DNA of 49,897 nucleotides from a virus. Within the stretch, counting starts at the first letter, position 1. Each line of letters begins with the position of its first letter. The stretch lies in UHGV virus genome UHGV-0143838. The stretch is one strand, 5' to 3'. The translations under genes were made by a program, and so were the position numbers. This document shows positions 12,420-13,289 of this stretch, piece by piece. Under the pieces are notes generated by a model. The model was given only the letters and a program-made list of their open reading frames with translations, was not told the DNA's origin and searched no databases.

Positions 12420-13289
12420 ATGGCTAATTCAGGAAGAGAATATGAAGAACTTGTCAGAGATATACAATATTCTTTGTTTAAAGCCGAAAATATTCCTAGC
12501 CTTAAAAACATTAATATCGAGAAAAATAAGAAGATAAAAGATCGTTCGGGAATTGAACGAGAATTTGATATATATTGGGAGTTCGAAATTGGAGGTCATA
12601 CCTATCGTTCGGTTATCGAGTGTAAGGACTATTCCTCCCCGGTATCGATTGAGAAGATAGATGCCTTCATTGGTAAAACTAACGATATTCCGGGACTTAA
12701 ACTAATCTATGCGACGCGAACGGGATATCAAAGCGGTGCAAAGATAAAAGCAGAGCAGCATAACATTCAACTGCTTGTTATCAGAGATCAGCAAGAACAA
12801 GACTGGGTTGATGAAGATGGCACTCCACTTCTAAAATCTATTCATTTTAGAATGACAGCCATATTACCGCCAAGAATCGTTAAATTTAATGTGCATGTTG
12901 ATAAAGAATGGTTTTATTCACAAAATGAATATACTGAAAGCACATTGCCAAATCTATTCAAAACAGAATATTCCAATGCTATTTTTATTCATAACCTTAG
13001 CAAAGACGAAAGATATAGCATTCATGATTTATCCAGTTTACTTATGAAAAAAGTTGAAAACATGGCATATGGAGAAAATATATACGCTGAAAAAATTGAC
13101 AATGGATATATAGAGAATGCGGATTCAAGCATAAAAATGAAGATAAAAGGTTTTGATTGCAAATATATTCATCACAAACCGATAGAAGATATATCTATAA
13201 TTGATTTCTCAGAACAAATTAAAGCCATTGTAGAAGATTTCATAACAGGAAAGAAAAAATGGGTATTAAAAAAAGGCATTGTAAAATGA
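12420..13289 (+). CDS. Mrr-like PD-(D/E)xK nuclease domain protein (putative restriction or defence nuclease)
   Basis: ORF 289 aa; N-terminal region has a D...ExK arrangement (REFDIYWEF ... VIECKDY ... IYATRTGYQSGAKIKA) typical of Mrr-type catalytic domains; C-terminal roughly 150 aa unassigned. Confidence 0.5.
   Translation: MANSGREYEELVRDIQYSLFKAENIPSLKNINIEKNKKIKDRSGIEREFDIYWEFEIGGHTYRSVIECKDYSSPVSIEKIDAFIGKTNDIPGLKLIYATRTGYQSGAKIKAEQHNIQLLVIRDQQEQDWVDEDGTPLLKSIHFRMTAILPPRIVKFNVHVDKEWFYSQNEYTESTLPNLFKTEYSNAIFIHNLSKDERYSIHDLSSLLMKKVENMAYGENIYAEKIDNGYIENADSSIKMKIKGFDCKYIHHKPIEDISIIDFSEQIKAIVEDFITGKKKWVLKKGIVK

Follow-up and report, generated by a model that had tools for sequence, protein, structure and literature searches.

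The stretch of DNA analysed here, virus genome UHGV-0143838 (49,897 nucleotides, called the window in what follows), is 100% identical to a chromosomal island of Escherichia coli FDAARGOS_1260 (NZ_CP069438.1), its right half being the adjoining prophage. In the island part lies a complete gene (12420-13289, + strand; ATG start, 289 codons and a stop) whose product is most likely a single-gene anti-phage nuclease, previously uncharacterised and labelled only "restriction endonuclease" in RefSeq (WP_045232945.1). The initial annotation, made from the letters and a list of open reading frames (ORFs), had placed a solitary plus-strand gene at exactly these positions, and this was borne out: the ORF is present there and is the sole + strand gene between two − strand genes. 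Direct reading of the sequence found a Shine-Dalgarno-like AAGGA (12408-12412, + strand) 7 nt 5' of the ATG. The G+C content of the gene is 32.6%, against 44.6% for the whole window and 36.4% for its island part. A search with the gene product returned 362 homologues at E ≤ 1e-3.

The N-terminal domain (codons 1-135, 12420-12824, + strand) was predicted from the letters to be a Mrr-type PD-(D/E)xK nuclease with a D...ExK arrangement, and a profile hidden Markov model (HMM) search had been proposed as the check. Pfam Mrr_cat (PF04471) matched residues 49-119 with 24.1 bits against a gathering score of 21 (E=4.3e-5), so that the absence of a nuclease fold did not arise, and the same profile matched 38 of 38 aligned homologues (best E=4.7e-7). 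The predicted catalytic codons, all on the + strand, are E9 (12444-12446), D50 (12567-12569), E67 (12618-12620) and K69 (12624-12626), and they correspond to the helix-1 Glu plus D...ExK set of the PD-(D/E)xK superfamily. Among 192 full-length relatives E9 is kept in 186, D50 in 191, and E67 and K69 in 190 each; together with the profile match this goes far beyond chance. An AlphaFold2 model of the full-length protein, built on a 38-sequence alignment, reached a mean predicted local distance difference test (pLDDT) score of 91, and the N-terminal domain has the alpha-beta-beta-beta-alpha-beta core of restriction-endonuclease-like folds. The structural neighbours of this domain, aligned over a core of about 110 residues, include the ligand-activated effectors Can2, Cdn1, Card1 and Cap4, several of which are among the closest. 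The nuclease domain thus appears intact and, judging from the alignments, under strongly purifying selection, and the protein belongs to Mrr_cat by every criterion that could be tested.

The remainder of the protein (codons 136-289, 12825-13286, + strand) forms a family-specific, beta-rich C-terminal domain, a putative specificity or sensor module. The initial annotation had called these roughly 150 residues unassigned, and so they proved: 24 diverse C-domains did not show any Pfam match over residues ~136-289 even at E ≤ 10, and neither the C-domain nor the whole protein matched NCBIfam, PADLOC or PHROGs. None of the 5027 defence-protein HMMs of PADLOC-DB 2.0 matched the protein at E ≤ 1, and sequence searches of PDB chains gave noise only, with the whole protein as with the C-domain profile (PsbQ, E in the 0.008-0.07 range). 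No transmembrane (TM) segment was found in the family. Modelled alone, the C-domain folds confidently (pLDDT 86.6) and is mostly beta. The confidence of its last ~30 residues is 65-73 in this isolated model and 91-93 in the full-length one, a drop which suggests that in the modelled structure the conserved C-terminal tail folds back against the nuclease domain.

When the C-domain profile was scored against 1.84 billion representative proteins, only 164 were found. All but one are ~265-313 aa long with the C-domain at ~130-285, or are fragments, and the domain therefore seems to exist only behind this nuclease, private to the family and not common to other effectors. The exception, P0128 (389 aa), has a ~100-residue extension C-terminal to the C-domain, which may be a true fusion or a missed stop, and which we take, by eye, to resemble DUF433-type antitoxin domains. 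The C-domain is acidic, with a median isoelectric point of 5.1 and a net charge of -1 to -11 in 37 of the 38 aligned members (+1 in the other). It also evolves faster than the nuclease. Mean pairwise identity among the 38 members is 36% for the C-domain and 64% for the N-domain, the C-domain being the lower in 703 of 703 pairs; its fastest-evolving part is the core (residues 141-260), and the tail (261-289) is more conserved. Polar residues that are widely kept are S/T200, K241, Y249 and D262.

The gene is present in 100 of 5,426 complete E. coli genomes (1.8%); 19 of the carriers have the allele of the window, 79 a second allele of ~80% nucleotide identity, and 2 more distant forms. In a codon-by-codon comparison the two alleles differ at five silent sites and at no amino acid over codons 1-135, whereas codons 136-289 hold 71 amino-acid differences, leaving the C-domains 54% identical. 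Compared with an Enterobacter protein, the second allele is 88% identical in the C-domain and only 93% in the N-domain. It follows from the identical N-domains, the divergent C-domains and the Enterobacter comparison that recombination has exchanged the C-domain exactly where the two domains meet, as would be expected if it were a specificity module. Tentatively, the C-domain could be a new fold serving as a swappable specificity module, either a novel reader of phage hypermodification or a direct sensor of phage protein, with recombination at the junction re-targeting the same nuclease. If so, single-protein defences, for which few sensor classes are known, would gain a new one. The allele pair, with its identical nuclease domains and 54% identical C-domains, is a natural experiment.

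The gene lies between the DotA/TraY transfer genes and RepL, in an island with IncI/Dot-Icm-type transfer genes (PilV shufflon adhesin, type IV pilin, MobQ relaxase, DotA/TraY) and, in line with the silencing and regulatory genes first noticed there, two annotated H-NS paralogues and an AlpA-type regulator. Homology with sister elements is interrupted over a variable cargo slot at 12294-14395 (taken without strand; 32.9% G+C) and resumes at its right edge near 14396. The slot here holds the nuclease gene and a 195-aa ORF (13426-14013, − strand), and no methyltransferase. The surrounding 5-kb region is matched in 581 E. coli genomes, as against the 100 with the nuclease gene. Other elements carry other genes at this place. 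In the sister element of E. coli VTB96815v (locus L012, 5967-6844) two adjacent DUF6216 genes occupy the slot directly after a hairpin described below. A smaller mobilisable relative has integrated by tRNA-Ser/mtfA in E. coli VG38-53E1 (NZ_CP128578.1). Its complete Thoeris system (locus L013, 4635-6699; ThsA 8e-203, ThsB 1e-85) directly adjoins a homologue of the window's conserved 326-aa gene (14364-15344, − strand), on the same side as the nuclease does here. The nuclease gene is dispensable, exchangeable cargo. The 195-aa ORF was considered as an obligate partner and rejected, since the elements of the second allele have the slot without it.

Outside E. coli the family is sparse and spans many phyla. 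Among 185,579 species representatives, 105 (~0.06%) have a member, and these range from Gamma-, Beta- and Alphaproteobacteria, Desulfobacterales and Campylobacterota to Victivallales, Elusimicrobia, Omnitrophota, Bacillota, Leptospira, Dehalococcoidia, Binatia and Fibrobacter. The family comprises at least 740 clusters at 90% identity. A few plasmids also carry homologues, among them an Acetobacter conjugative plasmid where the gene stands beside Tn7/Mu-like transposition genes. A tblastn search of 50,697 phage records did not find any family member. For 72 species-level loci the two nearest ORFs on each side were collected and the resulting 276 proteins were scanned with Pfam. No recurrent partner emerged, no Pfam family being present in more than 5 of the 276 proteins, and no DNA methylase was found among them except in four related alphaproteobacterial gut metagenome-assembled genomes (MAGs; loci L073, L075, L081 and L089, ~8100-16650), where the homologue lies between type III mod and res genes. 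As far as its neighbourhoods indicate, the gene is autonomous, with neither partner nor methyltransferase.

The individual contexts match those of defence genes. In Vibrio parahaemolyticus the homologue is a single-gene integron cassette with attC repeats 1,021 bp apart, and a lambdoid prophage of Pantoea carries it as an opposite-strand moron. The Proteus homologue stands between Hachiman (HamA 5e-130, HamB E=0) and DarT, near ArdA and HsdR, that of Pectobacterium adjoins RelB/ParE, and that of Neisseria lies beside RhuM fragments. Other members sit in plain chromosomal islets without transfer genes. Aeromonas sobria CECT 4245 has two diverged copies (L039, 9633-10472; L057, 10001-10837) with 62% identical N-domains and 36% identical C-domains, one of them with an in-frame stop at codon 16. 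An apparent pair of copies in one Sulfurimonas MAG was rejected, as it was the same sequence on two contigs.

The closest known nucleases are the Mrr/Mrr_cat (PF04471) type IV enzymes and the archaeal Mrr-like AF1548 (PDB 1y88). EcoKMrr has an N-terminal winged-helix DNA-binding domain (Mrr_N) and a C-terminal nuclease. In the protein studied here the nuclease is N-terminal (Mrr_cat at 49-119 of 289), the second domain is unrelated, and Mrr_N gave no match even at E ≤ 10. The reversed order and the lack of Mrr_N show that it is not an EcoKMrr-type enzyme. Its plan of a nuclease plus a candidate reader is that of the modification-dependent enzymes PvuRts1I/AbaSI and MspJI/AspBHI. The END nucleases, whose C-terminal domain was experimentally shown to set specificity (PMC12191111), share further features: an N-terminal nuclease and a C-terminal sensor in a single gene, no methylase, and a place in defence islands. 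Their nuclease is of the phospholipase D (PLD) type (a PD-DExK variant exists) and their sensor an inactivated EndoIII/Ogg1 helical domain (iEndoIII), whereas the present protein joins a Mrr-type nuclease to a beta-rich candidate domain of unassigned fold. Identity with the END nucleases was rejected for this reason, and identity with MdgA/MdgB because these are defined by DUF4268, absent from this protein. Compared with Shedu (SduA), Can2, Card1, Cdn1 and Cap4, the protein has no DUF4263, CARF or SAVED domain, no PADLOC match and no signal-generating partner; the similarity to Can2, Card1 and Cap4 is limited to the nuclease core, and no linked cyclase or CRISPR locus was seen among the surveyed neighbours.

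A further comparison concerns Divona and Epona, which one report describes as single-gene integron-cassette defences of Vibrio cholerae (10.1101/2024.07.02.601686). There, Divona is a Mrr-subfamily nuclease with an odd C-terminal domain, labelled DUF4365 and crr6 (PF08847) through HHpred, with E. coli homologues near integrases, and Epona has a two-TM holin domain. As far as these descriptions go, the present family resembles both in being a small nuclease fusion found as a single integron cassette, and differs from Epona in having no TM segment. Mrr_cat was the only family matched by the present members (38 of 38), and DUF4365 and PF08847 did not match any of 38 full-length members or 24 C-domains, a comparison with Divona by its description, the authors' labels coming from HHpred. 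No protein labelled N16961 was among the best 120 homologues of the V. cholerae family member, and a literature search on VCA0374 found only a note on an Aeromonas homologue. Compared by description only, the family is doubtfully the same as Divona; if it were, a defence role would already have been demonstrated and the family would be less new. The effector type itself is ordinary, and its unassigned second domain is apparently unique.

We infer nuclease activity, a role in defence and the reading of modified DNA by the C-domain from the observations above. In the reading we favour, to which we give a little less than an even chance, the protein would be an autonomous, methyltransferase-less defence nuclease travelling as exchangeable cargo, whose C-domain decides the target, most likely in a type IV-like manner. 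The Mrr-type domain would cut DNA by means of E9, D50, E67 and K69, and the C-domain would select what is cut by recognising a feature of foreign DNA absent from the host, for instance a phage base hypermodification. No methylase would then be needed to protect host DNA, and targets would differ between alleles whose C-domains differ. The type IV-like mode is favoured because a nuclease that enters new hosts without a partner has to leave their unmodified DNA intact. In agreement with type IV enzymes, no cognate methyltransferase was found in the neighbour survey, the methylases of the four MAGs belonging to a complete type III system of their own. Modification-dependent nucleases are also the commonest single-gene defence in metagenomic selections (PMC12366544). 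The role of type IV-like or abortive-infection effector that the initial annotation proposed would fit the genomic context.

Three observations weigh against a modified-base reader. None of the known readers (SRA, EVE/PUA, YTH, ASCH, winged helix, iEndoIII, DUF4268) was matched by the C-domain in sequence or in fold; the acidity of the domain is unusual for a DNA-binding module; and the near structural neighbours Can2, Cdn1, Card1 and Cap4 are ligand-activated effectors. A trigger-activated mechanism would account for these points no less well. The protein would then be a nuclease of the abortive-infection type, in which the C-domain binds a phage protein or an infection-specific molecule, or relieves autoinhibition, and indiscriminate DNA cleavage follows, much as in Shedu, Avs effectors or CARF/SAVED nucleases, here within one small protein. 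An acidic C-domain poorly suited to DNA binding and without a known base-reader fold would be at home in such a protein, as would a nuclease core near those of Can2, Cdn1, Card1 and Cap4. An arms race with phage proteins would be expected to produce a C-domain core of this kind, fast-evolving and swapped between alleles, and the conserved tail seemingly lies against the nuclease domain, much as an autoinhibitory latch could. In V. cholerae, according to the same report, most of the small nuclease-fusion integron cassettes tested caused growth arrest or lysis at high multiplicity of infection (10.1101/2024.07.02.601686). Nevertheless, the C-domain does not have a CARF, SAVED or other known ligand-binding fold, the survey of 276 neighbouring proteins did not reveal a cyclase or sensor partner, and the domain is never joined to other effector domains, unlike typical promiscuous sensor domains. 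We regard triggered, indiscriminate cleavage as the main rival, somewhat less likely than the type IV-like mode.

The location of the gene suggests another explanation, namely that the nuclease serves the mobile element itself, through addiction, exclusion of competing elements or DNA processing in transfer, and takes no part in phage defence. In the conjugative island the gene does have DotA/TraY transfer genes to one side of it and RepL to the other, and homologues occur on other plasmids, including the Acetobacter one with its transposition genes. A gene carried by 100 E. coli genomes, where the surrounding region is matched in 581, is dispensable, however, and its slot holds unrelated genes in sister elements. 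Other members lie in integron cassettes, prophages and chromosomal islets without transfer genes, and no antitoxin-like partner recurs, so that we consider a service to the element improbable. Still less likely is that the protein is an orphan type II-like sequence-specific enzyme with its methyltransferase at another locus, or a nuclease with a housekeeping function in repair or resolution, such as NucS or Hjc. An unprotected enzyme could not enter new hosts as a single-gene cassette or moron, and no methylase is linked or adjacent. A housekeeping role is ruled out by the sporadic presence of the family, with 1.8% of E. coli genomes and ~0.06% of species representatives having it, and NucS differs in domain order and in its second domain.

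Stand-alone nuclease defences are common and few of the sensor domains that choose their targets are understood; this family is a compact system of 289 aa with a sensor candidate that has no relatives. The slot itself, shared by a family of E. coli islands that are conjugative or mobilisable, would be worth searching for more defence genes, with the DUF6216 pair and the 195-aa ORF as well as Thoeris at the corresponding position. The DUF6216 pair of E. coli VTB96815v had no PADLOC match, and these genes are candidates for an unassigned cargo function. The 195-aa and 326-aa ORFs did not match any profile in Pfam, NCBIfam, PADLOC or PHROGs.

On the left, the slot is bordered by a perfect 15-bp hairpin with A-run and T-run flanks (12256-12293, no strand assigned; terminator scan, fold z = -6.7), which resembles a bidirectional terminator. 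The initial annotation had listed an orphan terminator ahead of the gene. The hairpin is real, and the part of that description which does not hold is its attachment to the gene: since it is conserved in elements with other cargo, and homology ends within a few bases of its T-run, it is the last conserved element of the backbone before the slot and not specific to the nuclease gene. A role as regulator of the nuclease was considered and set aside on the same ground. About 45 nt upstream of the hairpin, in conserved backbone, there is a sigma-70-like promoter match (TTGACA, 18 nt spacer, TAATAT; 10/12; 12181-12210, + strand) from a promoter scan whose matches were not enriched over shuffles. 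Together, promoter-like site and hairpin might yield a small RNA of ~75 nt; alternatively, they might insulate the cargo slot and the transfer genes from each other in both directions.

All 245 of the 245 matches to a 3-kb query (11500-14500) in RefSeq complete E. coli genomes, and all 100 of the 100 gene matches, are chromosomal. The sole plasmid-labelled E. coli record with the island is CP088875.1, a 393-kb "non-mobilizable plasmid" with the second allele, which could be a piece of a chromosome or else a replicon of an unusual kind. In the window, the island, with its low G+C (36.4%), stops at the DUF6387/AlpA genes, from ~21700-22700 onwards, where it abuts the tail-fibre end of the prophage. 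The prophage part has 51% G+C and ORFs of the size of baseplate, tape measure, sheath and terminase genes. Near the right end of the window it carries a full-length sok antitoxin RNA (49047-49221, − strand; Rfam RF01794, 113 bits), implying a hok/sok module in the prophage part.
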